Assembly (NCBI GenBank): GCA_045613105.1
Contig: JAZLAI010000017.1
Coordinates: 43,497-107,496 of the forward strand
DNA from: Bacteroidales bacterium
Lineage (GTDB): Bacteria; Bacteroidota; Bacteroidia; Bacteroidales; F082
Length of the DNA: 64,000 nt
Direction: 5' to 3'
Below, piece by piece: positions 4,502-30,255 of the stretch. The position numbers and the translations under genes were made by a program. Numbering within the stretch: position 1 is the first letter of the stretch; the number at the start of each line of letters is the position of its first letter. The notes below the pieces were generated by a model. It did not search any database. It was not told the DNA's origin and was given only the letters and a program-made list of their open reading frames with translations.

Positions 4502-4504
4502 ACA

Positions 4505-13750: not shown

Positions 13751-16700
13751 TTAATAAATAACCACTTTCTGTGTATTTACTCCGTCTTCATTTATCAAAC
13801 GTACTATATAGGCGGTCTTGTTGAATTTGCTTAAATCAATTCTGTCATTGATATTTACCATGTCTTTTTTATAAACCACACGACCCATGACATCGATGAT
13901 CTGTAAAGAGCCTTCTGCTGTCACTACAAGCTCTTCACCAGATTGATATACAAATTGGCTGTCAGCTGTTGGCTGTTGGCTGTTGGTTAATATTAATACG
14001 AAACGACTGTGGTCACCATTATTTGTCGCTGCAAATTTATAATCGTCAAGAAGCAGATTCGTCTCTATTCCTGTAAAACGATCGAACAAGACAACACAAT
14101 CGAAATCACCTTCAAATTCAGCACTGATTGTATAGCGGCCCATTTTCTTTGACTCAAAGTTGACCGACACCTCTTCAGTATCCTTATTGCAATAATAAAC
14201 ACCGTAACGTTTTCCATCACAAGGAACATAAACGTTTGCAATGTTTTTATTGATATTAGTGATTTTAGGGAAGTCATTACAATCATCACCTGATAAATTT
14301 ATCACCACATTATCTTTGCCGTTATCATCAGAGACAATGACATTGATAAACTTAACTTCCTCATTTACAGTTTCACCTCTTTTTGTCAGATTTCCATTAT
14401 ACGACAAACTCGCGTCTTCAGAGAGCGCTTTCACAAAGAAACCATCACCAACCTTGATTGTTCCTGTTGACAAATAATCATAACCGCCATTTTCATTTAC
14501 AACAGCATAACCGCCTGCCAATCCGCTCGCGCTGACCTTACTCCAATCCATATCGAATGTGAATGGATTACCGAGAAGATGGAAGTTAGCCAGATCTTTA
14601 TAATCATCATATACAATATCAAATTCGCAAGACTTCTCATGTCTGACAATTCCCTTGAACGCTGCCACATCTTCACTTTCGAAAGATGCAAGATAACCTA
14701 TGCCTTGCAGAAACTCCGTCTCAAATTCACCATTCACATCAGCACCATCTTTATGATTCAGCCACTCCAAATCATTATTTCCCACATACCTATACAAGTC
14801 ATAATTGAAAGATGTAGGGACATAGCTTTCAATTTTAGCGTTTTTCATAGGAGACGATATAAACTGCCAGCCATTTATATTCTCATAGCTCCACTCGTCG
14901 GGAGCAATAATATTCATATTGAATGTCGCCGCAACATTATCATTATTCAGAAATACTTGTGCGCCATCGTTGATGATAAAAGCGTCAGCATCTGTATTTG
15001 TAAAATCACCAATAACTGTGAGTTTTGTACCGCTGTTAAGTGTCAATGATTTTCCTTCATTGATAGTCAATGAATTCACTTCAATATCATCGCTTGCTAT
15101 TGTAGCATTAGCATTGATGATTACAAGATTGTCGTTTCCTGTAGGAAGTTGTTTTGTGGCCCAGTTATCAGTATCTGACCAAAGACCGTCTTGGATGAAG
15201 ACATTGTAATTTTTGTAAATGTTTTCAGACCATTCAATTCTTGATTCCATGCTATTTTCTATAGCGATGCTTACTTCGTCAACGCCTGTACAATAACCAT
15301 ATCCTGCAACATTTACAAATGCGATATAGAATTGTTGTCCAACATAATCGCTCAAATCTACTTCTTGCTCTCTCCATTCTTGAACATCAGTTTTTTCGCT
15401 TGACCATAATTCAGTCCAACCGCTATTGTAAGAAGTTGTACTTATCATAACTTTCAGAGTGTTGATATCGTTTTCCCAAGCTGGAGTGATGTATCTAAAT
15501 GACAACTTCACATCCTTGCCATTATATTGGGTGTAGTCCATTGGACGTGTTACCAAATATGATAAATAAGATGAATTCTCATAGACAGATGCAATAAAAG
15601 CTGCTTTTCCTGAAAATGCTCCGTATGTCTTATAATCAGTGGTTATACGAGAATCTATTTTCCAACTATATTTATTATTACTACCTTCTCTATAAATGTA
15701 CCAATAATTATTATTTGTTTGATAATCACTTGTATAACTTGTCACCTCAAGATTTGTGAAGTCTTGTGTGTAAATTATTTCATTTTGTACATGCAAATTA
15801 GAAACGCCATATTGATAAATACCGTCTTCTAAAGAATTCCAGTTGTCGGTGTATGAAGTTCCACTTACGTTTGTAGCAACACTTGTTTCTGTACCAGCCA
15901 AATAATCTTTTCTATAAATGTTAGAGCCTTTGCTATCTGTTGCATTAGTCCAAGTGATGTTTCCGTTATTTGCTATAACATCTGTTGGTGATGGAGCTTC
16001 TGGATTGTCACCTGTTTGTACGCGTGTAACCAAAGATTGTTCAGATTCTAAATCACCGCGTTTTGATGTTATGGTATAAGCATATACTGTACCGTATTCT
16101 AAACCTGCATCTGTATATGAAGTTGATGTTGTATTATCGAGGTATGCTCCATCGCGATAAACATTGTAGCTTGTTGCATTGTTTGTAGCGTCCCAAGTCA
16201 AGTTGACATTAGTTCCGTTTGCTGTTGCATTAACTACAGGAGCTACGAATTCGTTAGAAACATTTACATCAATATTAAAAGTACGGCTGTAGCCTCCGTT
16301 TGTTGCTGTAACAGTGAAAGTGACAACATGGTTATCTTCTACTAATGGGTCGATGTTTACTACGAAAGTAGCTGATGCTGTTGCGCCAGCTGCCATTGCG
16401 CTATATGTCTTGCTGCCTTGAACGATAGTTGTATAATTGTCGTTTTCTGAGATTGTTACGCTTGTTGTTCCAGAAGTTGAAGAACTACCGTTGTTAATCA
16501 ATGTGAGTTCAAGATTAATGTTTGAACCAGCGTTTAAAGTGCTTGTGAAAGCGTAAGGGTTGATGACAACTGGGTCGTTGAAGTTAACTGCTTGAACAGC
16601 TGCGAGAGCGTCGATGAGACCTGCACCTGTGCTATTGCTTTTTGTAGCTGTGAGTTCTACTGCTGTGGTCTCAATGATTCTACATAAGTCAGCTGGGGTG

Positions 16701-18049
16701 AGTTCAGGGTTTTTCTCGAGCATAAGAGCCATAACACCAGCAACGCAAGGAGCGGCTTGTGAAGTACCAGACTTGCCCCAATAAGTATTGGTAGCATCAT
16801 GTCTGATTGAATATACGTTTTCACCTGGTGCTGCGATGTCAGGGCGGATAAGACCGATGCCGGGATTGTATGGATAGTCGTTATATCCTGATATGCTTTG
16901 CCATGTTACAGGACCTTTTGATGAACTTGGTGAAACTACGTTATATTCATTTACAGCGCCAACGCTGATAACGCTTGTCAAACCGCCTGCATTACCTTGT
17001 TGGTCAGGGTGAATCCATGGTGGAGGACAGTCGCCTGGAGTACGTACGTTGTCAGGTGCAGGGTTGGTGCTACTGTTACCGTCATTACCAGCTGCTACTG
17101 CTGCAGCGATACCAGTTTGTAATAAGCTTGTGAAAGTCTGACGGAACAATGCTCTGTTTTCATCTGGGTTTTCTCTACCTATAGAAAGACTTATGACGTC
17201 TGCACCTAAATCTGCTGCTATTTGAACACCTTCTACCAAGTTGGCTGCTGTACATCTGCCGCCACCGACTATTTTGATGGTCATGAGTTTTGCATCAGGA
17301 GCAACACCAGTCTTTTTGCCAGAAGTACCGTCGCCGCAAACAATGCCAGCACAGTGTGAACCGTGACCATTGCTGCCTTCATCTGAAGGTAATGAATTTG
17401 GTGAGTGTACGTTATATCCGTATTTTCCGTTTTCGTTCCATAAATGGTCTTTGATGTCGTCATGGTTGAGATTGGTACCAGAGTCGAGAACTGCAACTAC
17501 GACGTCTTTACCTGTATAACCTAATTCCCATACTTTGTCAGCTTTAATCTGTGTTAAATGAGGATAGATGTCTGATGTTGCTGCTACAGCGCGAGAGTCG
17601 GTTTCAGAAACCGTATTGCTGACAATATCCATGTCTGAATTGTATGTTATCAAAGCTACATCTGGATGTGATGCTAACTTGTAAATTACATCGGCTTTTG
17701 CCTTACAGTTGATGAAGTTGGCAATCCAGTATGATTTAATGTCGATGACACTATTGCTTCTTTCTTCAGCATTGATGACAGACATGACGTCTCTTTGTGA
17801 TTTCTCAGCGAATTTCTTCAATTCGTTGATGACGATTTCACGACGTACTTCCTTGCCGTCGCTTTTGCAATTCAAGACTGCGAAATCATCGCTCGTCATC
17901 TGTGACTTAAACATGATGTTGACGTCGATGTAATCGTCGCTTCTATGATTTAAAAGTGTTTGAAGTTCCGGTTCAATAATATTATTTTGGGAAAATCCCC
18001 AACATGATGCCATCAAACATAATAAAAGGATAAAAATATTTTTTCTCAT
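13751..18049 (-). CDS. Large secreted S8 (subtilisin-family) serine peptidase with propeptide, FN3-like repeats, a MAM/choice-of-anchor-J-like domain and a T9SS C-terminal domain
   Basis: 1432 aa. Catalytic motifs VAVLDSGT, HGSHCAG, SGTSQAAPCVAG. C-terminus ...LQIIDVMGRVVYKK...AYIVRLINEDGVNTQKVVIY. Confidence 0.88.
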   Translation of the reverse strand: MRKNIFILLLCLMASCWGFSQNNIIEPELQTLLNHRSDDYIDVNIMFKSQMTSDDFAVLNCKSDGKEVRREIVINELKKFAEKSQRDVMSVINAEERSNSVIDIKSYWIANFINCKAKADVIYKLASHPDVALITYNSDMDIVSNTVSETDSRAVAATSDIYPHLTQIKADKVWELGYTGKDVVVAVLDSGTNLNHDDIKDHLWNENGKYGYNVHSPNSLPSDEGSNGHGSHCAGIVCGDGTSGKKTGVAPDAKLMTIKIVGGGRCTAANLVEGVQIAADLGADVISLSIGRENPDENRALFRQTFTSLLQTGIAAAVAAGNDGNSSTNPAPDNVRTPGDCPPPWIHPDQQGNAGGLTSVISVGAVNEYNVVSPSSSKGPVTWQSISGYNDYPYNPGIGLIRPDIAAPGENVYSIRHDATNTYWGKSGTSQAAPCVAGVMALMLEKNPELTPADLCRIIETTAVELTATKSNSTGAGLIDALAAVQAVNFNDPVVINPYAFTSTLNAGSNINLELTLINNGSSSTSGTTSVTISENDNYTTIVQGSKTYSAMAAGATASATFVVNIDPLVEDNHVVTFTVTATNGGYSRTFNIDVNVSNEFVAPVVNATANGTNVNLTWDATNNATSYNVYRDGAYLDNTTSTSYTDAGLEYGTVYAYTITSKRGDLESEQSLVTRVQTGDNPEAPSPTDVIANNGNITWTNATDSKGSNIYRKDYLAGTETSVATNVSGTSYTDNWNSLEDGIYQYGVSNLHVQNEIIYTQDFTNLEVTSYTSDYQTNNNYWYIYREGSNNKYSWKIDSRITTDYKTYGAFSGKAAFIASVYENSSYLSYLVTRPMDYTQYNGKDVKLSFRYITPAWENDINTLKVMISTTSYNSGWTELWSSEKTDVQEWREQEVDLSDYVGQQFYIAFVNVAGYGYCTGVDEVSIAIENSMESRIEWSENIYKNYNVFIQDGLWSDTDNWATKQLPTGNDNLVIINANATIASDDIEVNSLTINEGKSLTLNSGTKLTVIGDFTNTDADAFIINDGAQVFLNNDNVAATFNMNIIAPDEWSYENINGWQFISSPMKNAKIESYVPTSFNYDLYRYVGNNDLEWLNHKDGADVNGEFETEFLQGIGYLASFESEDVAAFKGIVRHEKSCEFDIVYDDYKDLANFHLLGNPFTFDMDWSKVSASGLAGGYAVVNENGGYDYLSTGTIKVGDGFFVKALSEDASLSYNGNLTKRGETVNEEVKFINVIVSDDNGKDNVVINLSGDDCNDFPKITNINKNIANVYVPCDGKRYGVYYCNKDTEEVSVNFESKKMGRYTISAEFEGDFDCVVLFDRFTGIETNLLLDDYKFAATNNGDHSRFVLILTNSQQPTADSQFVYQSGEELVVTAEGSLQIIDVMGRVVYKKDMVNINDRIDLSKFNKTAYIVRLINEDGVNTQKVVIY
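13957..13986. repeat. Heptad array with perfect (GCTGTTG)x3 at 13965-13985, inside the S8 peptidase ORF
   Basis: ggctgtc agctgtt ggctgtt ggctgtt gg. Encodes TNSQQPTADSQ just upstream of the T9SS CTD. Confidence 0.9.
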
Positions 18050-18101
18050 ATAATTTAATAATACAAATGCATTAATCTATCTTTGTTTAAAAAAATCTTT
18101 A

Positions 18102-18109
18102 CAAAGATA
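18102..18109 (-). promoter_or_regulatory. -7 box TATCTTTG for the large S8 peptidase gene
   Basis: The minus strand reads TATCTTTG 53 nt upstream of the ATG at 18049. Confidence 0.45.
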
Positions 18110-18154
18110 ACAAAAATTACTCAATGTTTATAAAGCCGTAAAAACACCATCATA

Positions 18155-21100
18155 TCACTCAGACACTCTCACTCTCAAGCCTTCCGAATAAGCCGAAAAC
18201 TCTGGAGAATACATACATTGTATCAAAGCGTAACCATTGCTGAAGTCACCTTCTTTTGTCACGAACATCGAATAACTTACCTGATGTTTGCCTTTCGGTA
18301 GTCTGTCGAAATAGAATCCCATGAAGGTGTCGCTGTTGCTTTGATAATATAACATTCCGTCTTGGTATCTGTATCTTGACATTTGTTCGACTGGCTCGAG
18401 GCAAGCAGCTCTCATGTCTTTCAAAAAGACGAACTCCATATCTTGGGAACTTTCGATATTCAGATTTACGACAATCTTGTCCCCGACTTTAATGTCTTCT
18501 TTTTCAATAGGAACAAGATAAGTGCCTTCTTCATTGATTCGCTCGACATATATATTTCTCTCTACATTCAACGGCGATTCGTGCTTTCTCACTTCATCAA
18601 GAGAGACGAAATACTGGCGGAATAATCCTCCCCAAATGAGATTGTCGGTCTCGTTATTGACTTTGAAATCTTTAAAATCCTTCATCTCTTCAGAATTCCA
18701 GAAATATTGATTCATATAATCAGAAGAATTATTATCGTTTTTAATATCAATAACTAATTCATCATTGTGAATTTGTATTTCGGAGACGCAGCAATGTGTG
18801 TTGGCTTTTATAGGAGACATTGATGCGTCTCTACTTGTAGTCTTATCAAAAACCAAAGCATAAACAGCGTCAACCGTCGATTGAGCATTTTCCCACATAT
18901 TGGTACGTTTGTTATTTAATAACCATACCTTCATGTCGTTGAGAAGTTCCTCATCAGGATTTATTTCCTTGAATGCTTCCATAATAACAACATGTTCGCT
19001 GACTTTAGAACTCCAATACATACCAAGAGTCTCGTTCTTTTTAGCTCTTTCTTTCAGTGATTTCATTATCAGCTGAGCGATGTTTTTATCACCATTGCGA
19101 TATAATATCAAGGCTATTTTTGCTTGCGTGCCGAAATTGAAGCCCTGCCAGTTTTCTTTCAATTGTTTGATAAAGAAGTCTTTGGCGTTCTTGTATTTTA
19201 AATCTTCATTGAAGTTGAAGAAACTCAATGCATATAATTCATTGATGTTTAAATAAGAGATGTTCTTATAATCTTTGTATAAGTCATAATCTTTTATTAT
19301 GCCTTTGCATAAATAGTCGATGGCGTTTTTGGTGATGATGTCGGAATATTCCTGCTGACTTGGTGTCAAGGAATTTATTACATCCATCTTATAAAGACGA
19401 CCGAAACCGCCTAATATATATTGAGTTATAAACGTGCTTTCAGGCATATTAGGGAACCACGACCATCCGCCATTGACGCTTTGTTTCTCTTTGATGAGTT
19501 TTAAAGTCTCATCGGTTTTATTGCGTAATGTGTTAAGGTCGAATAAGTTGGCAATCATCGCTTTTTGTTCTGCTTCAGATTTTGCTTCCATCACCCAAGG
19601 TGTCTCTTGTAACATGATGGCTTTCAGATTCTCGTCTTTCTGAAGTGCCGATATCAATGCATCAGGTGTCTCTAATTCCCATTTCATGATATAATCCAAT
19701 AAGTTAGGAATGTTATTCGCGATATATGAGGCGAGACTGTTAGCATAGAAAATGTTGAATGCAGCATCGGCATATTGTCCTGTTTCTTGTGCAAGATAAG
19801 GCAACGACTGTATCGCGTACCAAACAGGATTTGCGCAGATATTCAATGTCAATCCATAGTTTCTTTCGTTCTCATTTTGGAAATCGAAGTCGAATGTCTT
19901 TTCAGAATTTTCTCTTACTATCAAAGGATAAGTCTCTGTCATGAAGACCTCATTGCTTAAAACAGGAAGAATGTGTTGCTCTGCATCAGAGAATTCCTCT
20001 GACGAAACGCTGAAACGCATCGCTAACATATTGGTATTGTTATTAACTGCTACCTTCCATCTCACAGATTTACTATTTCCAGCAGCAATCTCATCGATGG
20101 CAATTTCCTGTTCAGAGAGAATCAAATCCAAAGGTTTCATCGTCAAAGCGTCAAAAATCTCCAATTTAGCATTTGCAGACTTAGTAACCATATCTTCCCC
20201 TGAATTCCTAATCACATTCGCTACTACCCAAAGAGTATCGTTTTCATAAACGAAGCGTGGCATATCACTCATGATCATAAGAGGTTTTGATGTTGTGAAA
20301 GTCTTGTTCAAAGTGCCGACTTTCAAGTCTTTGGTATAAGCGAGCATCATAAGGTTCCAGCGAGTCAAGGCGTCTGGCATGGTGAAAGAGAACCTCAGAC
20401 TTCCATCATCGTTTGTAATTAAGTTAGGATAGAAGAACGCCGTCTCGTTGAAGTTTTCTCTTATACTCATTTCTTGATTTTCTGTACTTTGCATTTCTTC
20501 TTGCTGAGAATTATCTATTACATCTTCATCAGCTACTCTAAATAACTCAACTGCCTCTTCGTCTTCATTTGTATTAACACCGCCTACTTTTACAGCTATT
20601 GCATTTCTTACGCGAGAAGGCATCAGCATCACATCTCGTGCTGAAAAAGTATATCTCGCGATAGGTATCAAATCAATGTCCGACAATAAATAGTAAACAA
20701 ACAATTCGTAAGTCTTAGGATATTGATTAAATGTAAAGCAATAGAAATCGTCGAAACCTCCGTCGCTTCGCGGTGATGTCGATGTCTTGATGCTAGGTTT
20801 TGTGTTGAAATACCAATGATTTTCGGCGAATACATCCAAAGAAGCGTCGTACATTCCTGCTAGAAGATTGGCGACAACGCCTTTGTCCTTATAATCCTTG
20901 ATGGTGAGATTCCATGTTTCTTCACTGCTAGGAAGCAAGTCGTCTCTTACAACATCCAATTTTATGTCTAAATCGAGGTTGTCGTAAGGCACTGCGATAT
21001 AATGTTCTACAATATTTATAGTGTTGTCTTTAACAAAGAATGCTTGGAACGAAATATTTCCTCTGTCTTCTTCTTTGACTTTGTAATTGATTTTTATGAC

Positions 21101-23914
21101 TTTATCACTTATTGTCTTACGTTCGTAATATCTGACCTCATCACCATGTTTTATCATGACATAAACATTGACATCTTTGGCAGAACTTCCTAAATAAAAA
21201 TTAACATTGTCATTAGGTTGTGCTGACGCTTTGTCATAGTAAGAAATACACATTGTATTATAAGGCATTTTGTTGCTCTTAAAATCTATGACAGTCAGTT
21301 CGATAGATGTCATCGCCTTTTCATTGTCGGCAGAAATCAATTCAACGACATATCTTCCTTTATCTATAAGTTTTTTAACATTTGGGAATAATTTAGACTC
21401 TCCTTTGACATTGACGGTATCTTCATATATCAAATGTCTGTTGTCCGTTGTCTGTTGACTGTCGTCTTTAACTTCATAAATCTTTCTGATGATTTTTGCT
21501 TCGACAGGATTTTCTTTAAGATTTTTAACATTGAAACTGATATGTTTCAAACTATCTATGCTGACGTTTTTATATTCTTTATTAACATCAATAATCAAAT
21601 CAATGTCTGATGCTTTTATAGTGTAGGTTTTAGTCTGGCTTTCGCCTTGTGCGTTGGTAGCGTTTACTGTTATAAGATATTCATAAACAGGGAGTCTGTC
21701 TTTAAAATTCTTATCAGGAAGCAATTCGAAATTGATATTGAAGTTGCCATTCGCATCGGTTGTTCCATCTCCGAAAGCAATCTGTTTTTGGTTGTTGCCA
21801 TAATTGGCGAACCACCATAAACGATATGGGAAATAAGCACGTCTTGCGATTGTATAATTATAATTAACATTATCGAGACCGAATCCGGCGTATGCTTTCA
21901 CTGAACCGTTAAGTTCTACTTCTTCATTGAGTTTGTATGATTTGTCAGGAGCGTTGAATGTTATTTCAAAAGTAGGACGTTTATATTCTTCAACTTTTAC
22001 GTAGATGCTTCCAGTGACATTGCTTATCTTGAAAAATCCGTTAGATAAATTATCAGGGATGACGAAACTTCCATCGAAAGAACCGAATTCGTTTGTTGTA
22101 AATGTATGTGTACTAATATCTTCGCCGTTTGAATCTTTAATGTGAATTACAGTTTCTGCATTAACGACTAATTCATTTATCTCAGAATTTTTATTAACAA
22201 TCACACCTTTATAATAGACAGTCTGTCCCGGACGATAAATTGCTCTGTCTGTAAAGAATATCGTTTCTTGTATTAATCTTCCTGAATTTTCATTCTTATA
22301 ATTATAGAAATGAGAATCGGAGAGAAGCATGTCGTTGTCTTTGAATAAGTTGATATGAAATGCGTTCTGACTTGTATTAGGAACTTTAACGATTCCGTTT
22401 TCGTCTGTCGTCAAATCTTTGATAGTTGTATTGACATATTTGTTCTTGTTATAATTGTAAGAACGTTTAAAAATATTGACATTTACGTCTTTTACAGGAA
22501 GACCGCTTTCTCTGTCAAGTACATAGACTACGAAATCGTTGTTTTCTTTTGTGGTGACAAAACTAAGTCTGCTGACTTGGAAAGAATGAAAAGCTGGCAG
22601 ATTATCTATTTTATTTGAGAATTTATCATCGTTGGAAACTAGTATGTAATAAATCCCGCATTCCAACTTTGGCAGAGTGATATTTATGGAATGCGATTGA
22701 TAATCATTCTTTTCTGGGATGTCGATTTCGTTTTCAACTATATGTTTTTTCTTTAATATTGTCTTTACAACATCCATCTCTGATTTATCATCTAATTTAT
22801 CCAACTCATTTTGACTTAGTCTATAAATTCTATAATGAGGATTTGTTAAATTACTGTAAGAAATGTTAGCTATGATGTCATGATTTGGAAGATGCACGCT
22901 CGACATCTTTAATTGCAGATTTTTTCTTAAAATATTGGAACGTATTGTTTCACATTGTAATGCACCGACACTATTAGGAAATAATTTTATTGCTTCATCG
23001 CAAATCTCAAGTACAACATCCAGGTTTTTGCTTTCGACATTCTGTTGACTGTTGACTATTGACTCTTGTCTATCAAAAATCGCTTCAGCTTGTAACGCCA
23101 TCACGGATGTGACGAGAGGATTGTCGAGGTTTTCGTTCTTAATTTTTATTAAGGAATTTATATAAGATTCATAATCGTCATTGGTTTCATATTCATATTT
23201 CAATTTATGAATCTCATTATATATCGCAGCGTCATTATAATTGTTCTTTTTGTCAAAATCGATAATATCTTGGTATAAATCTATGCAATTTAATGACTTG
23301 CGGATTTGGTGGTTTATGATTTTATGCACTACATAATCATAAAGAGTAGGTTCTATGGTGTAATCGAATTTGGTTTTGGTATCGTCAATCGCCAAAATAT
23401 CTTGATATGATTTTGATGCGGTGTTTTGAAGGCTTGCGATATCGGAAAGAGCGTTTTCATAATATTTGTCGATAACTCTTTCAAAAGTTTTTTTGTCCCA
23501 GAATTCCATGTCCAACTCATCACCATTGATCGTAATCTGTTGATTGTTGATTTTATAGAAATTACTGTTGTAATAACTCTCGTAAAGAGAAGCTATTGCT
23601 ACATTAAAAATCGACTTTTCAGGTTCTAGGAGTTTTCCGATATTTTCCTCAGCGAATTGTATTGAGGTCTCTATCGGATTTTCATCTTTCAGATTTATTA
23701 TTTTAAATCTATACAGATAAGATTTCAGAAGTTCTTTCTGATTGTTTTCGTCAAGGGCTTTTTGTTCAATTTTATCAAGAAACATTTCCGCCGTTTCAGG
23801 AAGTCGGTCTTCTAAATTTTTATTAACATCTTTCCATAAATCGATATAGGACTGAGCGTTGAGATTGCTGAAGAGAGATAACGACAATATTATCAATAAA
23901 AAATTGGTCTTCAT
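18155..23914 (-). CDS. Alpha-2-macroglobulin family protein (bacterial A2M, MG-domain array), thioester-less
   Basis: About 1919 aa from the ATG at 23914 (MKTNFLLIILSLSLFSNLNAQ signal). Repeated MG-like beta domains, a TED-like region ...LPYLAQETGQYADAAFNIFYAN..., and a C-terminal ...FLKDMRAACLEPVEQ... module. No CxEQ motif anywhere in the protein. Confidence 0.8.
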   Translation of the reverse strand: MKTNFLLIILSLSLFSNLNAQSYIDLWKDVNKNLEDRLPETAEMFLDKIEQKALDENNQKELLKSYLYRFKIINLKDENPIETSIQFAEENIGKLLEPEKSIFNVAIASLYESYYNSNFYKINNQQITINGDELDMEFWDKKTFERVIDKYYENALSDIASLQNTASKSYQDILAIDDTKTKFDYTIEPTLYDYVVHKIINHQIRKSLNCIDLYQDIIDFDKKNNYNDAAIYNEIHKLKYEYETNDDYESYINSLIKIKNENLDNPLVTSVMALQAEAIFDRQESIVNSQQNVESKNLDVVLEICDEAIKLFPNSVGALQCETIRSNILRKNLQLKMSSVHLPNHDIIANISYSNLTNPHYRIYRLSQNELDKLDDKSEMDVVKTILKKKHIVENEIDIPEKNDYQSHSINITLPKLECGIYYILVSNDDKFSNKIDNLPAFHSFQVSRLSFVTTKENNDFVVYVLDRESGLPVKDVNVNIFKRSYNYNKNKYVNTTIKDLTTDENGIVKVPNTSQNAFHINLFKDNDMLLSDSHFYNYKNENSGRLIQETIFFTDRAIYRPGQTVYYKGVIVNKNSEINELVVNAETVIHIKDSNGEDISTHTFTTNEFGSFDGSFVIPDNLSNGFFKISNVTGSIYVKVEEYKRPTFEITFNAPDKSYKLNEEVELNGSVKAYAGFGLDNVNYNYTIARRAYFPYRLWWFANYGNNQKQIAFGDGTTDANGNFNINFELLPDKNFKDRLPVYEYLITVNATNAQGESQTKTYTIKASDIDLIIDVNKEYKNVSIDSLKHISFNVKNLKENPVEAKIIRKIYEVKDDSQQTTDNRHLIYEDTVNVKGESKLFPNVKKLIDKGRYVVELISADNEKAMTSIELTVIDFKSNKMPYNTMCISYYDKASAQPNDNVNFYLGSSAKDVNVYVMIKHGDEVRYYERKTISDKVIKINYKVKEEDRGNISFQAFFVKDNTINIVEHYIAVPYDNLDLDIKLDVVRDDLLPSSEETWNLTIKDYKDKGVVANLLAGMYDASLDVFAENHWYFNTKPSIKTSTSPRSDGGFDDFYCFTFNQYPKTYELFVYYLLSDIDLIPIARYTFSARDVMLMPSRVRNAIAVKVGGVNTNEDEEAVELFRVADEDVIDNSQQEEMQSTENQEMSIRENFNETAFFYPNLITNDDGSLRFSFTMPDALTRWNLMMLAYTKDLKVGTLNKTFTTSKPLMIMSDMPRFVYENDTLWVVANVIRNSGEDMVTKSANAKLEIFDALTMKPLDLILSEQEIAIDEIAAGNSKSVRWKVAVNNNTNMLAMRFSVSSEEFSDAEQHILPVLSNEVFMTETYPLIVRENSEKTFDFDFQNENERNYGLTLNICANPVWYAIQSLPYLAQETGQYADAAFNIFYANSLASYIANNIPNLLDYIMKWELETPDALISALQKDENLKAIMLQETPWVMEAKSEAEQKAMIANLFDLNTLRNKTDETLKLIKEKQSVNGGWSWFPNMPESTFITQYILGGFGRLYKMDVINSLTPSQQEYSDIITKNAIDYLCKGIIKDYDLYKDYKNISYLNINELYALSFFNFNEDLKYKNAKDFFIKQLKENWQGFNFGTQAKIALILYRNGDKNIAQLIMKSLKERAKKNETLGMYWSSKVSEHVVIMEAFKEINPDEELLNDMKVWLLNNKRTNMWENAQSTVDAVYALVFDKTTSRDASMSPIKANTHCCVSEIQIHNDELVIDIKNDNNSSDYMNQYFWNSEEMKDFKDFKVNNETDNLIWGGLFRQYFVSLDEVRKHESPLNVERNIYVERINEEGTYLVPIEKEDIKVGDKIVVNLNIESSQDMEFVFLKDMRAACLEPVEQMSRYRYQDGMLYYQSNSDTFMGFYFDRLPKGKHQVSYSMFVTKEGDFSNGYALIQCMYSPEFSAYSEGLRVRVSE
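18783..18831. repeat. Palindromic element (GAGACGCAGCAAT...ATTGATGCGTCTC) embedded in-frame in the A2M ORF
   Basis: Shares a 13-mer left arm and a 16/17 right arm, in the same order and with similar spacing, with the intergenic element at 26414-26465. Encodes RDASMSPIKANTHCCVS. Confidence 0.75.
21436..21470. repeat. Heptad array gtctgtt/gtccgtt/gtctgtt/gactgtc/gtcttta inside the A2M ORF
   Basis: Five 7-nt units. Encodes KDDSQQTTDNRH. Confidence 0.8.
23038..23072. repeat. Heptad array cattctg/ttgactg/ttgacta/ttgactc/ttgtcta inside the A2M ORF
   Basis: Five 7-nt units. Encodes RQESIVNSQQNVE. Confidence 0.8.
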
Positions 23915-23973
23915 ATCTGATAGGATTTTATTGTTAAAAAATATCAAAAATGAGACCAATTAATTATTGTATG

Positions 23974-24010
23974 ATAAAAAAGAGACGCATCATTTTGATA
24001 CGTCTCTTTC
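23974..24010 (-). terminator. Hairpin terminator of the S46 peptidase gene; short member of the GAGACG palindromic element family
   Basis: The minus strand reads aaagagacg-tatcaaaatgatg-cgtctcttt followed by ttt. It shares the 13-mer ttgatacgtctct with 26454-26466. Confidence 0.7.
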
Positions 24011-24077
24011 ATATTTTCAATTTTCCATTATTCAAGACGTCACGAGTGACATCTCTACATTTGGCAATTTATTTCAA

Positions 24078-26300
24078 TTATTCAGCAACAACTTCTTCAA
24101 CTACTTCTGTTTGAGGTTCGCTCTTGACGATTGTTAATTCGTCGATGAGGTTTGTTGCGCCGGCAAATTTGTCGATTACGAACAATACGTAACGTGCGTC
24201 AACATTGATTGTACGTTGTAATGTTGGTTCGAAGTTGATGTCGCCGCTCATAGCTTCCCAGTTGCCGTCGAATGCGAGGCCGATGAGTTCGCCTTTAGCG
24301 TTCATGATTGGGCTACCTGAGTTACCGCCAGTGATGTCGTTTGTTGAAAGGAAGCAAACGATTAACTCACCGTTTTCGTCAGCATATTGACCGAAGTCTT
24401 TAGCAGCGATGAGGTCGAGGAGTCTTTGTGGAACATCGAATTCATAGTCGCCTGGAACATATTTTTCGAGGATACCGTTAGCTGTACATACATAGTCATA
24501 ATGAACAGCGTCAGCTGGTTGGTAATCTTGAACTGAACCGTAGCTCATGCGTAATGATGAGTTAGCATCTGGATAGAGGCTCTTTTCTGGTTGTGCCTCT
24601 GCGTAGAATTCGCGTAAGCCTTTAACGAACAAGTGGTTGTTTTCGTCGATGACTTTCATTGCTGAGCGGTAAGGAGCGAGGCTGCCCATCATGTGGGTGT
24701 ACATTGTGTTCAAAACTACGTAAGCCAAGTCTTTTTCAACTTTCTTTGCGTTAGGTTTTTCGATGAAAGCCTTGATTGATTCAGCTGTTGCGAAGATTGA
24801 GTTTTCCAAGATATCGTTAGCTAAAGCGACTACATCACCTTTATATTTCTTATCAACTAAGTTGTAGAAGTCAGGATTTGCTTCAGCATCGAAAGTGTTG
24901 TAATATAATTTCAACATTTCAACCAAAGTCTTATCTTCTAATGCTTTGTATGTTTCTGCGAAATAAGCGTCAGCGTCGATAGCTTTGAGAGCTTCTTCAG
25001 CTGCTGCGATAGCTTCTTTATCTTTACCTTGAGCTGCTGCTACATATTGAGCGAATTCTGCTGCGATAGCGATTGCGCCTGTTTGTGTAACAAAGTTAGG
25101 ATAATAGATAGATGGTGTAAATTCAGCTGCCAATGCATAGTTTTCTTCTAATGTGTTCAATACGTTGCCATATTCTTCAACGCGTGCTGGGTTAGCGTTA
25201 ACCCATTCTGTGAATTGAGCTTCGAGTTCAGCTTTTCTTTCAGCTACTTTGTTTTTGCGGAGCATCAACATTTGGCCTTCAAAGTTTTTCCATGTGTTAG
25301 CGAGACCAGCTTTATCGTCAGCGTACATGATATTGACAGAAGCGTCTTTTTGCATAAATTCGTCCATAACATCTGTTTGGAGTTTGAAGATGTCGTGGAT
25401 TGTTGGGTAGAATGATTCAACGTTATAGTCGATACCGAAAGATGTCATGTAACGTTCTGTTGTTCCAGGGAAACCCCAAATCATTGTGAAGTCATCTTTT
25501 TCGATTCCGTCTAAGCTGACAGGAAGATGATGTTTAGGATTTAATGGTTGGTTTTCTGCAGAATAAGCTGCTGGTTCGCCATCAGCGCCGGCATAAACGC
25601 GGAAGATTGAGAAGTCGCCGGTGTGACGTGGCCACATCCAGTTGTCGGTGTCGCCGCCGAACTTACCGATTGAAGAAGGAGGAGTACCTACGAGACGAAC
25701 GTCTGTATATACTTTATAAACGAACATATAATATTCGTTGCCTTCAAAGAAACCTTTGATGATTGGGTTATATTTGCCTCCTTCTGAAGCTGCTGTTTCA
25801 AGTTCTTTAGCTTTAGCAGCGATAGCGGCATTACGTTCATCCCAATTCATTGTATCGTTCAAGACAGCGAAAATTTGTTCTGTAACGTCTTCCATGCGTA
25901 CCAAGAAAGAAGCAGAGATACCTTCTGCTGGAAGTTCTTCGCTGAAGTCTTTCGCCCAGAAACCGTCTGTTAAATAATCGTGTTCAACAGTACTGAGTTT
26001 TTGGATTGAGTTATAACCGCAGTGATGGTTGGTGAACATAAGGCCTTTGCCTGAAACGATTTCACCTGTGCAGAAGAAACCGCGTGGTGTTGCGCCTTCT
26101 GACAAACCAACGATAGCGTCTTTTAAGCTGCTGTTGTTGATGCTGTAGAGTTCTTCAGGAGTAAGTTGAAGACCCATTTTTTCCATGTCAACATAATTCA
26201 AACGCTCGACGAACATAGGAAGCCACATTCCTTCGTCAGCATGCACTTTGCCCACTAATGAGAAAATAGCGAGGGCTACTAATAAGAAAGTTTTTTTCAT
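24078..26300 (-). CDS. S46 family dipeptidyl-peptidase (DPP7/DPP11-like)
   Basis: 740 aa. Signal peptide followed by DEGMWLP. Catalytic motifs FTNHHCG and TGGNSGSP. Confidence 0.9.
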   Translation of the reverse strand: MKKTFLLVALAIFSLVGKVHADEGMWLPMFVERLNYVDMEKMGLQLTPEELYSINNSSLKDAIVGLSEGATPRGFFCTGEIVSGKGLMFTNHHCGYNSIQKLSTVEHDYLTDGFWAKDFSEELPAEGISASFLVRMEDVTEQIFAVLNDTMNWDERNAAIAAKAKELETAASEGGKYNPIIKGFFEGNEYYMFVYKVYTDVRLVGTPPSSIGKFGGDTDNWMWPRHTGDFSIFRVYAGADGEPAAYSAENQPLNPKHHLPVSLDGIEKDDFTMIWGFPGTTERYMTSFGIDYNVESFYPTIHDIFKLQTDVMDEFMQKDASVNIMYADDKAGLANTWKNFEGQMLMLRKNKVAERKAELEAQFTEWVNANPARVEEYGNVLNTLEENYALAAEFTPSIYYPNFVTQTGAIAIAAEFAQYVAAAQGKDKEAIAAAEEALKAIDADAYFAETYKALEDKTLVEMLKLYYNTFDAEANPDFYNLVDKKYKGDVVALANDILENSIFATAESIKAFIEKPNAKKVEKDLAYVVLNTMYTHMMGSLAPYRSAMKVIDENNHLFVKGLREFYAEAQPEKSLYPDANSSLRMSYGSVQDYQPADAVHYDYVCTANGILEKYVPGDYEFDVPQRLLDLIAAKDFGQYADENGELIVCFLSTNDITGGNSGSPIMNAKGELIGLAFDGNWEAMSGDINFEPTLQRTINVDARYVLFVIDKFAGATNLIDELTIVKSEPQTEVVEEVVAE

Positions 26301-26323
26301 TTTTTTGATATTAATTTAAATTG

Positions 26324-26461
26324 TTAATTGTTCATTATTGTTGAGAGACGCAGCAATTACATATTGTTTATTTTTATGGTGTAATTGATACGTTAATTGT
26401 TCATTATTATTGAGAGACGCAGCAATTACATATTGTTTATTTTTATGGTGTAATTGATACG
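26324..26461. repeat. Tandem direct duplication, 2 x 69 bp, each copy carrying the palindromic element
   Basis: 26324-26392 and 26393-26461 differ at one position (g/a). The unit is ttaattgttcattatt[g/a]ttgagagacgcagcaattacatattgtttatttttatggtgtaattgatacg. Confidence 0.9.
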
Positions 26462-26465
26462 TCTC
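26414..26465. repeat. Complete palindromic element: GAGACG-cag-CAATTACA ... TGTAATTG-ata-CGTCTC
   Basis: 6-bp outer and 8-bp inner inverted repeats. The upstream tandem copy (26345-26392) lacks the closing TCTC. Confidence 0.8.
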
Positions 26466-26476
26466 TACAATGTTAT

Positions 26477-28123
26477 TTATTTTCTGCTGTTGTCGATCAA
26501 AAGTTCTGGTGACATTTCATAATAGATGTCTGTAGGTATTCCCATTCCGTTGACTTTGTCGAGGTCAGCTTGTAATGTTGGTTTGATGACACCGTCAGTA
26601 GCGATCCATTCTTTTACAAATTCGTAGTTGCCGTCGCCTTGAGCTTTGAGGATTTCACCGCCGAGTTTAGCAACAGCTACCTTCATGTTGTCGAAATTGA
26701 TTGCATATAAACCTTCTTCGTTACGAGTGAATGCTCCTTCTTTTTCCAAGAAGTTGAAGGTTAACATATTAGCTTTACCGTGTGCGCTTGAAGCACCGAA
26801 ACGTACTGAACGGAAGATACCTGCCATGAAAGTAGTGTAGTTTTCTTCCAATGTTGAGTTAGTATATTCACCCATTTCAGCAAGTTTTGTAACCAAATAA
26901 AGTCCGAGGATATCAGCTTTAGCTTCTTCAATACCAGAATATTGTTCTTTAAGAGCGTGACGTACAGTGCCTTTACCATCGAGTGTGTTTTTTATACCCA
27001 TACCGTGAGCTACTTCGTGGAACATAACGTTAGCGAAGAAAGCTTCGAATTTTATATTCTCGCGTGATTCTGGTGTCATGAGTACGTCTGAAATAGGAAC
27101 GAGGATGTTGTCGAACTTAGCTTTCATAGCGTTCTTGAGTTGTAATTTACGAGTTCCTTTTTGAAGCTGAACTTGTTCATCGTTAGGCAAGTTGATAGCT
27201 ATTGTCTTGCCAGCCATGTTACAGTCGCCGCCGTAGAATACAGCATCATAGACTGCAAGGTCAGCGTCAGCGCCTGGCTTTTCTTGCTTATATTCTTCAG
27301 CTACTGGGAGTTGTGTTTGTAATAATGGGAGAAGTTCTGCGTAACGAGCAAGTTGGCTGCTCCATGCGTGATCTTTAATCAAGATGAAAGCCTCGTGAGC
27401 TGCCTTGTAGCCATAGAGAGCGTCAACATAATTTTCGATTGGACCGACAACGAAATCGACGTTGTTGTTACGTACATCCATCCAAGCCATGTCGCTTTCA
27501 AAATAATCGTCTGTTAAAACAGCTTTAGCTCTGAGACGCAAGTAGTCAGCAAATTCTTTGTCACCTGCGAGGTCGGCAGCTTTGTTTAACAATTCAGCAA
27601 CCTTATTGATTTGTTCAGCGTAAGCATCATGGAACCATACAGATTGTAACTGACCGTTTTCGTCGCGTTTGATCAAAGTGTAGAGACTTGTCTTGTCAGG
27701 GTTGTCCCATGCTTCAAATTCTTCTTTTGTCATGTCAGCCGGATAGAAACCTGCACCTGCTGGCATTGCGCCGTATTCAGGAAGGAAAGAAGCGAGGTTA
27801 TCGAAGTGGTTCCAAGGACCATAGTTAATTTCTGCGAAGAGACGAGCGTCAGGATCTTGGATTGAGTTCAAGAAAGCTTCTTTGTCGCCACCGAAGTTCT
27901 GTGTCCAGAAAATATCATCCATGATATTACCGATTTCATAGAGATAGCCCAACATTTGTTTCTCATTGTCTGACAAATGAGTGATGTCGGATGTTAATTG
28001 AACCTTAGCATATTGCTTTGTAAGGTCAGCATAGTTAGTCTTGGCTTCTTGTTTTTCAGGATTAGCGCAGCTGATTGTAGCTGCTCCTAATGTCAAAATC
28101 ATTACTAAGTTTTTAATTTTCAT
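26477..28123 (-). CDS. Zn-dependent hydrolase lipoprotein, M49/DPP3-family-like
   Basis: 548 aa. Lipobox LGAATISC. Metal motifs FHEVAHGMG and EEAKADILG. Confidence 0.5.
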   Translation of the reverse strand: MKIKNLVMILTLGAATISCANPEKQEAKTNYADLTKQYAKVQLTSDITHLSDNEKQMLGYLYEIGNIMDDIFWTQNFGGDKEAFLNSIQDPDARLFAEINYGPWNHFDNLASFLPEYGAMPAGAGFYPADMTKEEFEAWDNPDKTSLYTLIKRDENGQLQSVWFHDAYAEQINKVAELLNKAADLAGDKEFADYLRLRAKAVLTDDYFESDMAWMDVRNNNVDFVVGPIENYVDALYGYKAAHEAFILIKDHAWSSQLARYAELLPLLQTQLPVAEEYKQEKPGADADLAVYDAVFYGGDCNMAGKTIAINLPNDEQVQLQKGTRKLQLKNAMKAKFDNILVPISDVLMTPESRENIKFEAFFANVMFHEVAHGMGIKNTLDGKGTVRHALKEQYSGIEEAKADILGLYLVTKLAEMGEYTNSTLEENYTTFMAGIFRSVRFGASSAHGKANMLTFNFLEKEGAFTRNEEGLYAINFDNMKVAVAKLGGEILKAQGDGNYEFVKEWIATDGVIKPTLQADLDKVNGMGIPTDIYYEMSPELLIDNSRK

Positions 28124-28978: not shown

Positions 28979-30103
28979 TTATAAAAATAAATCAGCAGCT
29001 ATTCCGTCGGCGAAAAGCATGCCTTCATCAGTGAGGATGTAATTATTATTTTTTATTAACATTATTCCCGAATCAAGGTGTTTCTTAACGTTTTTTAAGA
29101 AATGAACAGCATATCTGTCTCCATAATCCGCCTCCATTTTCCCGACATTGCATCCCCACGAAGTTCGCAGACTCGTCATGACATATTCATTAAATTTATC
29201 GTCTGTCGTAAGCATTTCCTTCTCGAAATAATCATCAGCATTTCCTGCTAGTTGAATGTATTTCGTGAGATTAGAGATATTCCACTGACGCGAATTTCCG
29301 TCGTAAGAATGAGCGGAAGGCCCTAATCCTAGATACTTCTCATCCATCCAATAAATACTGTTATGCTGTGAGCGGGATCCTTCTTTGGCGAAGTTGGAAA
29401 TCTCGTAATGTTCGAAGCCGTTTTCTTTTGTTCTCTCAACTAGAATTTCATAATGACGTATTGTTTCTTCCTCACTAACAGATTGCAAATCTCCTTTTTC
29501 AATACGCTGACCTAGGATAGTTTTAGGCTCTACCGTCAAGGCATATGCTGAGAGATGCGATATTCCTGTAGAAAAGAAAATGTCGAGATTTTCATTCCAT
29601 TTCTTTTCTGTCAATGTCGGGACACCATAGATAAGGTCAAGTGTCAGTTTTTCAAAACCTACTTCATGTAATTCCTCCAAAACCTTCAGCGCATGTCTTG
29701 AATCGTGCCGTCTGTCCAGATATTTCAAGTCATCATCATGAAAGCTTTGGATACCAACACTGATTCTATTTATACCCAACGACTTAAGACCCAGCATCTT
29801 TTCTTTGTCGATAGTATCTGGATTCACTTCAAGAGTTATTTCAGGATTGGAAACGATGTCATAATTTTTATTAAGAATATTTATTATCTCTTCAATATTC
29901 TTGACGGAAAGCAGTGATGGTGTCCCGCCTCCGAAATATATTGTCCTCACCGTCTCGTTTCCGAGATATGACTTGCGGGCGACGATTTCCTTCTTCAAAG
30001 CTTCAACATAATGTGAGATTTTACTTTCCGAAGCCAAGGAAAAGAAATTACAATATGCGCATTTGCTTTTGCAAAAAGGAGTGTGAATATATATTCCTGC
30101 CAT
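28979..30103 (-). CDS. hemW: Radical SAM family heme chaperone / oxygen-independent coproporphyrinogen oxidase-like (HemW/HemN-like)
   Basis: MAGIYIHTPFCKSKCAYCNF (CxxxCxxC), GGGTPS, HemN_C-like tail. The ATG at 30103 is preferred; the longer track ORF reads through a heptad array. Confidence 0.8.
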   Translation of the reverse strand: MAGIYIHTPFCKSKCAYCNFFSLASESKISHYVEALKKEIVARKSYLGNETVRTIYFGGGTPSLLSVKNIEEIINILNKNYDIVSNPEITLEVNPDTIDKEKMLGLKSLGINRISVGIQSFHDDDLKYLDRRHDSRHALKVLEELHEVGFEKLTLDLIYGVPTLTEKKWNENLDIFFSTGISHLSAYALTVEPKTILGQRIEKGDLQSVSEEETIRHYEILVERTKENGFEHYEISNFAKEGSRSQHNSIYWMDEKYLGLGPSAHSYDGNSRQWNISNLTKYIQLAGNADDYFEKEMLTTDDKFNEYVMTSLRTSWGCNVGKMEADYGDRYAVHFLKNVKKHLDSGIMLIKNNNYILTDEGMLFADGIAADLFL

Positions 30104-30115
30104 AGTTAATGAAAC

Positions 30116-30164
30116 TGTCAACGGGCAACAGACAACAGACGTTGAAGTCTGAGTTTGTTGAAAG
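30116..30164. repeat. Heptad array tgtcaac/gggcaac/agacaac/agacgtt/gaagtct/gagtttg/ttgaaag in the hemW 5' leader
   Basis: The minus strand reads gtctgtt gtctgtt gcccgtt gacagtt, 23/28 identical to the A2M intragenic array at 21436-21463. Contains the hairpin cagac-gttgaa-gtctg. Confidence 0.8.
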
Positions 30165-30255
30165 TGATTTCTGAAATGCAAAATTAAAATAATTCTTGAT
30201 GCTTTTAATAAAGAAAAAAATCTTATTTTCGTAAACTATTTATAAAGATAAAAAC

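Follow-up and report, generated by a model that had tools for sequence, protein, structure and literature searches.

An element within the A2M reading frame

A palindrome that recurs in intergenic spacers and also lies inside a protein-coding gene raises the questions of what kind of element it represents and how it came to be translated. The window, i.e., the entire 64-kb stretch of Bacteroidales DNA analysed here, contains such a case in an ORF of 1934 aa for an alpha-2-macroglobulin (A2M) family protein (18155..23959, minus strand), which was recognised by its Pfam domains MG2, A2M and bMG10. The protein probably starts at the ATG at 23914 and carries a signal peptide, and its thioester motif CxEQ is changed to YADA. 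The element, a REP copy designated as type B, comprises 52 bases (18783..18834, minus strand) and was defined by its sequence, translation and fold and by its absence from orthologs. It forms a hairpin, and its minus strand reads GTAG-AGACGCATCAATGT...ACATTGCTGCGTCTC; the GTAG head occupies 18834-18831 on this strand, and the copy therefore reaches 18834. The interrupted stem of 14–15 bp (GAGACGCA.CAATGT / ACATTG.TGCGTCTC) encloses a loop of 19 nt, and RNA folding yielded −18.1 kcal/mol, corresponding to a z-score of −5.0 against shuffled sequences. Inspection of the sequence 3' of the copy revealed no U-run. As proposed in a preliminary description of this locus, the element preserves the reading frame: it is translated as RDASMSPIKANTHCCVS, and the read-through peptide ...KTTSRDASMSPIKANTHCCVSEIQ... 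corresponds to aa 1709-1727 of the ORF.

Further copies in the window

All three element sequences quoted in the preliminary description were found where it had placed them, and both arms of the A2M copy indeed recur, with the same arm asymmetry, in the intergenic copy at 26414-26468. We counted five copies at three loci of the window, all inside 8 kb of the 64 kb. The arm sequence GAGACGCAGCAAT occurs eight times in the window if up to two mismatches are allowed (1.67 expected; eight reached in none of 100 shuffles), and every one of these close matches is an element arm. The hairpin nature of the window elements was borne out by RNA folding, with z-scores of −5.0 to −7.9 and no shuffle equalling the fold. 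Because a generic scan of the window for GTAG hairpins stayed at shuffle level (20 observed vs. 9–25 in shuffles, no enrichment), only sequence-related copies were counted. An Rfam gathering scan of the window returned one tRNA and nothing else, and no curated covariance model fits the REP copies.

The intergenic copy, type A, extends over 55 nt including its head (26414..26468, minus strand) and is documented by sequence, fold and orthologous copies. It lies 8 nt past the stop codon of an M49-like peptidase gene, and 57 nt are 100% identical to copies in the genomes of two other species; among its orthologs in the related loci L031 and L041, an A-T pair was exchanged for G-C in a compensatory manner. 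Self-comparison of the sequence revealed a 69-nt tandem duplication (26323-26391 and 26392-26460, 99% identical), which yields a second type-A copy at 26345-26395 with its head arm shortened to ACGTATCAAT. Only one unit of the 69-nt sequence is present in the syntenic loci L031 and L041.

Two shorter members are located behind an S46 peptidase gene. The first one, recognised by its fold, is a short hairpin (23982-24006; 23976..24007 with its flanks, minus strand; −19.9 kcal/mol, z = −7.9) with the sequence GAGACGTATCA-AAA-TGATGCGTCTC followed by T6, which retains the 11-nt basal stem of the REP with the same T.G asymmetry, lacks the GTAG head and shows GAAA upstream in its place. It probably represents a REP-derived intrinsic terminator of the S46 gene, and loop-deleted REPs were also seen at orthologous sites (L033 vs. 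L104). A simple terminator scan of the window flagged none of the REP elements, this hairpin included, likely because an A:T extension of the stem consumes part of the T-run, so the label "terminator" is drawn from the fold and the T-run. The second one is a degenerate, GTAG-headed short REP of type E (GTAGAGATGTCACTCGTGACGTCTT; 24034..24058, minus strand), which was assigned by sequence relation and lies 20 nt past the S46 stop codon. The copies outside of A2M would serve the S46 and M49 peptidase genes as 3'-end hairpins or terminators, or be decaying into such structures.

A dispersed repeat family in related genomes

Scanning one genome per species, we obtained at least 120 stretches with family members, mainly from MAGs of gut Bacteroidales, Ca. 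Limimorpha and its relatives among them. Further copies, as called for in the preliminary description, were found: among the matches listed, there are more than 100 multi-copy, dispersed repeats in genomes of dozens of other species, with several contigs per MAG carrying copies. The head arm of the family is GAGACGTATCAAT and the tail arm, as reverse complement, is GAGACGCAGCAAT, and the arms are asymmetric in the way seen in the window; GTAG is present on one side only in 108 of the 131 Bacteroidales-type copies listed. A typical copy is positioned 5–40 nt past a stop codon with the GTAG strand in sense orientation. Among the listed matches, a co-directional gene precedes 76 copies at a median gap of 29.5 nt, and 21 copies have an opposite-strand gene on that side. 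Only about 2 of the 108 oriented copies among these matches are intragenic (about 98% are extragenic), so coding insertions are rare events. L069 has a further in-frame family member in a ThiE-like gene, and L011 has one in the gene of a histidine kinase, in agreement with the earlier proposal of a palindromic family that occupies spacers and, rarely, coding sequences in-frame in an RPE-like manner.

The stem is subject to covariation: in an alignment of 30 copies, 99% of the cells were paired and five pairs were changed on both sides, which was equalled by none of 500 shuffles, and compensatory substitutions occur in the inner stem. The loops of 19–26 nt are conserved between species, and the subtypes share only a foot of 11–13 bp; the subtype of the A2M copy is also present in L033, L034 and L110. 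Clusters and tandem or inverted pairs of repeats occur in L025, L012, L053 and L060. The basal stem GTAGAGACG(T)A.CA was found again in Cyanobacteria and scattered phyla among the matches listed. A strict insertion target upstream of GTAG was ruled out for the copies outside the array-associated subset described below, which exhibit a weak AAT preference at most.

Association with a RAYT transposase in related genomes

The 64-kb window contains no RAYT gene. In the related stretch L025, the gene product of positions 4145-4720 matched the NCBIfam model REP_Tyr_transpos with E = 1.1e-10 and 41.6 bits, which is under the curated cut-off of 80, and the match to Pfam Y1_Tnp was weak. This gene sits amid a swarm of family repeats and has its stop codon inside one of them. 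Inverted REP copies flank the RAYT gene in L025 and L037, and L095 carries repeats solely downstream of a RAYT fragment. We found more than 1090 homologs, some of them labelled RayT by JGI. The motif MPNH[IV]HLI of the RAYT is invariant. A search of the PDB with a single RAYT sequence produced no match; with a profile of 24 sequences, the top PDB match was TnpA-REP of E. coli (4ER8), whose HUH motif and catalytic Tyr115 align with the HUH motif and Y167 (xYIKNN) of the RAYT. The motifs NH[IV]H, WQ and YIxNN and a length of about 190 aa point to subclass 2.4 (PMC6006769). For the source genome itself, the presence of a RAYT and the copy number of the repeat are extrapolations from these relatives.

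These features identify the element as a GTAG-tagged REP of the type associated with RAYT subclass 2.4/group 4, which adds another case to an established class of repeats. Subclass 2.4, which is reported to be abundant in Bacteroidetes and Cyanobacteria and to have REPs in-frame in genes (Quentin et al. 2018, PMC6006769), is equivalent to group 4 of Bertels et al. 2017 (PMC5581495). The family shares with this class the GTAG foot 5' of an imperfect hairpin, the multiple, mostly extragenic copies behind genes, and the RAYT gene with the above motifs between inverted copies in relatives, and the basal stem in Cyanobacteria and scattered phyla fits the reported host range. It differs by its long conserved loops and subtypes, by one copy in a non-transposase gene (A2M) and by octamer arrays that abut about 15% of the copies listed. 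GTAG REPs were previously recorded in Proteobacteria, Cyanobacteria, Chloroflexi and the PVC group, with Bacteroidetes not listed (Di Nocera et al. 2013). A catalogue of intragenic REPs is given in PMC3733652, the supplements of which contain no GAGACG family and no macroglobulin entry. The preliminary suggestion that no equivalent had been described for Bacteroidota was too strong, as subclass 2.4 RAYTs are reported in Bacteroidetes in PMC6006769.

Rickettsia palindromic elements (RPEs), to which the element had been likened, provide an analogy only. Two of them, RPE-4 and RPE-6, belong to the CGTC-tagged REPs (PMC3733652). Both kinds of element are palindromic and occur in spacers and in-frame in genes, RPEs being tolerated in surface loops, whereas the tag (GTAG vs. 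CGTC) and the host phylum differ, no sequence relation is evident, and intragenic copies are exceptional in the family studied here (about 2% of the matches listed). Moreover, the classical RPE-1 is about 100–150 bp long, compared to about 50 nt for the family elements. With IS200/IS605 elements, the family has in common a related fold and motifs of the transposase (PDB matches 2F4F, 2EC2 and 2XM3), putative hairpin recognition on single-stranded DNA and, in A2M, insertion without target-site duplication, but its repeats carry no gene. It resembles BIMEs and REPINs in the clusters and tandem or inverted pairs of relatives and in the 69-nt tandem duplication of the window; however, most copies are singletons with no regular doublet spacing established. 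A DDE-derived MITE was rejected because of the missing target-site duplication and the anatomy of a single hairpin with a one-sided tag. Judged by anatomy alone, an integron attC site (no R/L box pattern), a DNA-inversion site (spacer too short) and a DGR target (no template repeat) were likewise discarded.

A2M orthologs and octamer arrays

We collected ortholog DNA of A2M via exact-protein look-ups, and a metagenome scan gave two loci, one of which ends before the site. The hairpin is absent from seven ortholog sequences of 62–86% identity. The REP is thus present in one of eight sampled A2M sequences, and L002 and L003, the two sequences with which that of the window forms a group (86% identity), are both without it. 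At the exact REP site, the orthologs contain an in-frame array of four octamer units (AAGACYAC...AAGT), translated as KTTRPQDYKTTS. Ortholog alignment and array comparison revealed that the window has one octamer unit and the array end (AAGACTAC-AAGT; 18833..18844, minus strand) immediately 5' of the REP, with an overlap into the GTAG head. The net length change relative to the nearest orthologs is +21 nt. A lineage-specific insertion of about 17 aa, as considered before, is therefore confirmed with respect to the absence of the hairpin elsewhere, but not as a clean insertion, since the element abuts an array and the net gain is 21 nt; since the flanking codons have changed too, base-exact boundaries cannot be assigned. 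The distant ortholog L127 contains a different heptamer array at this site. At a second site of A2M without any array, L002 and L003 carry a different REP in-frame, and the window represents the empty site. Neither of the two insertions is surrounded by a direct repeat (ACAAGT|...|CGAAAT and AATAATTTA|...|AAGTTTG).

The association of arrays and REPs extends beyond A2M. Among the matches listed, the junction array-AAGT-AGAGACG occurs at about 16 intergenic copies, and an array adjoins about 15% of the family copies, the other 85% or so having no neighbouring array. Arrays without a REP are present at many sites. Modules combining the same REP subtype and array units as in A2M were found in L033, L034 and L110, and the intragenic ThiE-like case in L069 shows the same array-REP layout. 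Array-abutting REPs are not described in the RAYT/REP literature covered, and a search with the sequence strings returned primers only.

Proposed entry of the hairpin into the gene

In our best explanation overall, to which we assign a probability of roughly 0.85, the A2M palindrome is a GTAG-headed REP copy from a family of animal-gut Bacteroidales linked to a RAYT. RAYTs are normally single-copy and considered domesticated (PMC5581495), and REP dissemination mechanisms are characterised as poorly understood in PMC8266576. Binding and cleavage of the cognate REP by the RAYT and its role in the spread of the family are putative. The enzyme would recognise the GTAG foot and the hairpin on single-stranded DNA and seed new copies, one of which may have landed on the 3' side (AAGT|) of an octamer array that was older and already lay within the A2M frame. 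This event would have cost three array units and two codons, resulting in the net gain of 21 nt, and the frame would have stayed open, so that the hairpin is now translated into about 17 residues. An AF2 model of A2M matches the bacterial A2M structures 4U48 and 5A42, and the REP-encoded insert corresponds to model residues 309-327 within a segment of pLDDT < 50 (308-332). In the predicted structure, the insert adds a short floppy loop in a low-confidence linker. It may be tolerated because of its location in this flexible linker, which follows the last helix of the TED-like domain, and is most likely neutral for the protein.

The same REP may have arrived by homology instead, as a module of octamer array, REP and T-run copied via array-array recombination or template switching, with an illegitimate 3' join. 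We consider this route possible but clearly less probable. It would account for the exact coincidence of the junction (AAGT|AGAGACG) with the array end, a feature shared by the intergenic modules, for the shrinkage of the A2M array from four units to one coinciding with the REP, for the same layout of the other array-associated intragenic case in L069, and for the subtype and units shared with L033, L034 and L110. However, homology is missing on the 3' side (CGTCTC|CGAAAT), the array-free majority of listed copies indicates that the family can spread without arrays, and no array accompanies the REP which L002 and L003 carry at the second site of A2M.

It appears rather unlikely that array and REP entered A2M jointly in an ancestor of the clade and that the REP was later excised or deleted in every sampled lineage except that of the window, the ortholog arrays being its remnants. 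The linkage of arrays to REP heads is far above chance, enzymes of the IS200/IS605 type excise precisely, and the heptamer array of L127 indicates long-term turnover at the site. Still, a REP in only one of eight A2M sequences and its absence from L002 and L003 would require several independent losses, and solitary arrays exist at many sites.

A hairpin kept for a function in the mRNA, either as a site for processing, stabilisation or pausing within the message or as an internal terminator leading to a truncated transcript, is quite improbable. The stability of the sense-strand hairpin (−18.1 kcal/mol), the strong bias of the family to sense orientation behind genes and the conserved T.G pair, a standard pair only on the GTAG strand, would agree with such a role; against it stand the missing U-run, the orthologs functioning without the hairpin, the translating ribosomes which would unwind it, and the rarity of intragenic copies. 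Finally, chance similarity or gene conversion limited to three neighbouring sites, as the location of every window copy within 8 kb might suggest, is refuted by the occurrence of over 100 copies spread across the genomes of dozens of further species, some of them non-orthologous and 100% identical to those of the window.

Significance of the family

The novelty of the element is modest, as the RAYT-linked REP class is already known and no new kind of element is involved. The analysis puts on record a REP/RAYT system of animal-gut Bacteroidales that belong to an uncultured clade. The comparison of A2M sequences, in which two sites occur both filled and empty, provides evidence that REPs get into reading frames and stay there. 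For the biology of A2M itself, the insert is probably neutral. For genome annotation, a short insert that is confined to one lineage can be a translated repeat in proteins of Bacteroidales, and palindromes trailing genes in these genomes are family members rather than independent terminators.

The recurrent array-AAGT-GTAG junction may bear on the site choice of REPs. On the opposite strand, the array units read GT[AGT]G-TCTT and are thus tag-like. We tentatively raise the idea, doubtful as it is, that the octamer arrays (RAGWCNMY)n-AAGT are preferred landing sites of RAYT/REP or by-products of cleavage and rejoining, and that arrays and REPs were repeatedly recruited in-frame as linker-coding sequence. 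If true, this would concern linkers in secreted and surface proteins of gut Bacteroidales, namely A2M at two sites, type-IX-secretion C-terminal domains and ThiE, and would represent the first sequence-defined target or footprint of a RAYT and a case of repeat-driven diversification of protein loops.

The palindrome and its host gene

The alpha-2-macroglobulin (A2M) ORF of the window (18155..23959, minus strand, 1934 aa) contains MG2, A2M and bMG10 domains, and its last 534 residues, when modelled, matched the bacterial alpha-2-macroglobulin structures 4U48 and 5A42. The palindrome runs on the coding (minus) strand from 18834 to 18783, has the sequence GTAG-AGACGCATCAATGTCTCCTATAAAAGCCAACACACATTGCTGCGTCTC and is translated as RDASMSPIKANTHCCVS; that the frame stays open had been stated in the preliminary description. 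Judged by its sequence, it is a GTAG REP (repetitive extragenic palindrome) and thus a further case of a known class: the sequence-level features of such REPs were found in the A2M element itself, which carries a GTAG foot, forms a hairpin and belongs to a dispersed family whose hairpin is under constraint, and those of the associated HUH/Tyr transposase (RAYT) were found in relatives. The proposed likeness to Rickettsia palindromic elements (RPEs) is fair as a functional analogy, both being in-frame palindromes, but the A2M element is probably no member of an RPE family, since its tag is GTAG whereas RPE-4 and RPE-6 are CGTC REPs (PMC3733652). The supposed lack of an equivalent description for Bacteroidota was overstated, because RAYT subclass 2.4 in Bacteroidetes (PMC6006769) and intragenic REPs (PMC3733652) were already published.

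The insert corresponds to residues 309–327 of an AlphaFold model (mean pLDDT 77.7), within a segment of pLDDT < 50 (308–332) that immediately follows the final helix of the helical TED-like domain and precedes the C-terminal beta domains. Because of this position, the model fits a tolerated linker insertion, and the copy is probably neutral. In place of the thioester motif CxEQ, the window A2M has YADA (aa 1396–1399, about 19763–19774) and its nearest relatives have YAEV, HADV, NADA or RAET, with CAEQ or CSEQ in remoter homologs; the A2M of this clade therefore appears from its sequence to be without a thioester. The gene belongs to a peptidase-related run at 13751–28898, all on the minus strand, which comprises an S8 subtilase with a T9SS sorting tail, A2M, an S46 dipeptidyl-peptidase, an M49-like peptidase and an M50B-like protein.

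Related repeats in the window

The three palindromes quoted in the preliminary description were present as described, at 18783–18831, 26414–26468 and 23979–24009 (all minus strand), and the folds of all window copies were much stronger than those of shuffled controls. That description had included neither the GTAG head of the full copies nor the tandem duplication and the degenerate short relative given below. The 13-mer arm was enriched in the window (8 matches vs. 1.67 expected, a number reached in 0 of 100 shuffles). A tandem duplication of 69 nt (26323–26460, 99% identical), comprising spacer and REP, created a second, truncated intergenic copy, whereas the syntenic loci L031 and L041 of other genomes (flanks 88–91% identical) contain a single unit, the REP of L041 with a compensatory change from ATTACA/TGTAAT to ATTGCA/TGCAAT. 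The GTAG-less short hairpin at 23982–24006 is presumably a loop-deleted REP derivative and putative terminator, for which one orthologous site (L033 vs. L104) provides a comparison case; a degenerate short REP relative lies at 24034–24058. Another hairpin with a GTAG head, at 5737–5767 (minus strand; GTAGAAGCCGTCACATTGAAGTGGCGGCTTT), has a stem of unrelated sequence and may be either a different type of REP or simply a terminator; it came from a generic GTAG-hairpin scan of the window that performed no better than on shuffles.

A dispersed family with associated RAYTs

Searching one genome per species with a degenerate two-arm pattern yielded at least 120 matching stretches, with about 8 expected by chance according to our own estimate, so that the predicted dispersal was borne out; copy numbers are lower bounds. 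The matches listed derive mostly from animal-gut Bacteroidales MAGs (Ca. Limimorpha, RGIG ruminant MAGs, 'Lentimicrobiaceae SIG10x', horse, yak), with multiple contigs per genome. Subtypes share a foot of 11–13 bp and differ in their interiors: type A (53 nt; a 57-nt stretch with the intergenic window copy recurs at 100% identity in L115 and L058), type B (about 47 nt), which includes the A2M copy, the almost perfectly paired type C (37 nt), and additional long and short forms. Among the matches listed, GTAG occurs on one side only in 108 of 131 Bacteroidales-type copies, on both sides in 3 and on neither in 20. The arms of these copies are systematically unequal (head arm GAGACGTATCAAT, reverse complement of the tail arm GAGACGCAGCAAT), which leaves the GTAG strand with one T.G pair and one T/C mismatch; this asymmetry recurs in the window copies. 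Type-A-like copies (n = 30) are 99% paired, with both-side changes at 5 stem positions, matched by 0 of 500 shuffles. Orientation and position are biased: by ORF heuristics, a co-directional gene precedes the copy in 76 cases, at a median distance of 29.5 nt, vs. 21 cases in which the gene on this side lies on the opposite strand.

A second set of the classical short-loop form GTAGAGACGTAGCATGCTACGTCTCTAC was found in Nostoc, Calothrix, Actinomycetes, Acidobacteria, Chloroflexi and others. Its foot almost equals that of the Bacteroidales family. Repeats of the form GTAGAGACGTAGCA(T/A)TGCTACGTCTCTAC, often nested or tandem, occur in Cyanobacteria, Actinomycetes, Acidobacteria, Chloroflexi and a delta-proteobacterium (L010, L018, L035, L043, L048, L051, L064, L066, L072, L074, L080, L098, L108 and others); their foot, too, is nearly that of the Bacteroidales family, which suggests a single REP/RAYT lineage spread across phyla.

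No RAYT gene is present within the 64-kb window. RAYT association was observed in relatives: a RAYT-type ORF of 191 aa lies amid a swarm of family repeats in L025 (Ca. Limimorpha sp.), with one repeat 27 nt upstream, head toward the gene, and its stop codon inside the next (...HHTVETYQ-stop); further homologs adjoin repeats in L037 and L095. The L025 ORF matched NCBIfam REP_Tyr_transpos with E = 1.1e-10, under the curated cut-off, and Pfam Y1_Tnp weakly; it has > 1090 database homologs, several labelled 'REP element-mobilizing transposase RayT' by JGI. The top solved structure for a 24-sequence RAYT profile was E. coli TnpA-REP (4ER8, E = 1.8e-4), whose HUH motif and catalytic Tyr115 align with invariant or near-invariant columns. 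Length and the motifs NH[IV]H, WQ and YIxNN fit subclass 2.4 (Quentin et al. 2018, PMC6006769), which equals Bertels group 4 (PMC5581495). This subclass is reported to be common in Cyanobacteria and Bacteroidetes, with scattered members in other groups, and is noted for REPs inserted in-frame within transposase genes (PMC6006769). We equate with this phenomenon the variable inserts resembling translated REPs in the RAYT homologs P0232, P0161, P0167 and P0190 (alignment columns 125–200), such as VETCHGASLQ or the repeated DVARNVCTNGAEIRDL of P0232. By analogy to E. coli TnpA-REP and IS200/IS605, and with the conserved T.G being a standard pair on the GTAG strand, the RAYT would act on this strand as single-stranded DNA. 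The sense-strand bias may stem from targeting of the lagging-strand template or from selection for hairpins at RNA 3' ends.

Insertion into A2M and other reading frames

We compared the DNA of seven A2M orthologs (L001, L002, L003 and L128 with 84–86%, L124 and L126 with 62–66% and L127 with 67% aa identity), and the hairpin was absent from all of them, confirming the suspected lineage specificity. Instead, L002 and L003 read GAT, AAGACTAC AAGACCAC AGGACTAC AAGACCAC AAGT, GTGGAG at the site (array translated KTTRPQDYKTTS), L001 and L128 contain GAGACAAC/AAGACTAC/AAGACAAC-type units, L126 AAGTCAAC-type units, L124 a degenerate array and L127 a heptamer array. The window reads GAT, AAGACTAC AAGT, AGAGACG...CGTCTC, CGAAAT, i.e., a single array unit, the REP and realigning sequence (EIQIHNDEL vs. 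VEVMRHGNTEL), with a net difference of +21 nt at approximate boundaries. By parsimony, the window lineage more probably acquired the REP beside a pre-existing array; an ancestral array–REP composite in A2M that later lost its REP appears unlikely. In L003, the A2M ortholog is split into two ORFs (3325–8322, 1665 aa; 8351–9244, 297 aa); the break lies about 90 aa before the array site and may reflect a frameshift, a pseudogene or faulty assembly.

At another A2M position, L002 and L003 carry an antisense type-E REP (GTAGAGACGTCACCCCTGTGGCGTCT) in-frame, WKVAINN[LRRHRGDVSTS]LLAMRFSV, with 1.6 tandem copies in L002, and this site is empty in the window (WKVAVNNNTNMLAMRFSV); neither A2M insertion shows a target-site duplication. 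Further in-frame cases are a REP with heptamer/octamer units in a ThiE-like ORF (L069) and a REP doublet in a histidine kinase of 989 aa (L011). Intragenic copies make up about 2 of 108 oriented copies among the matches listed.

Octamer and heptamer arrays

Arrays of 3–5 tandem octamers (consensus RAGWCNMY, such as AAGACTAC AAGACCAC) ending in AAGT were observed in related Bacteroidales genomes (L004, L014, L033, L034, L052, L059, L060, L071, L077, L085, L095, L104, L110 and others; window 18833–18844). In other genomes, about 16 intergenic REP copies share the junction array-AAGT-AGAGACG, with the array adjoining the GTAG head; in these modules, an array beginning at the stop codon comes first and a T-run stands behind the hairpin. 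Other arrays precede a T-run with additional 7-mer repeats (AGGAATT/AGGAGTT) or are found immediately 5' of TAnnTTTG-type promoter boxes. Units are more alike within one array than between orthologous arrays, which suggests concerted turnover.

In-frame octamer arrays also occur at the same position of apparent type-IX-secretion C-terminal sorting domains in three different genomes (L034 about 7446, minus; L087 about 7685, plus; L110 about 1569, plus), e.g., ...VYDVYG-RQQDNKTTRQQG-SVVVDVTDLNSGVYFVKV. A heptamer-type array within the window A2M ORF (21433–21462; TGTCTGT TGTCCGT TGTCTGT TGACTGT, translated DSQQTTDNRH) has an inverted copy, 83% complementary, about 8.7 kb away at 30114–30143, close to the start of ORF 28979..30181. 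The L003 ortholog differs at this site and carries an extra 33-aa segment. No description of octamer or heptamer arrays, linked as they are to REP heads and present within reading frames, was found in the REP/RAYT literature examined or by a literature search on sequence strings.
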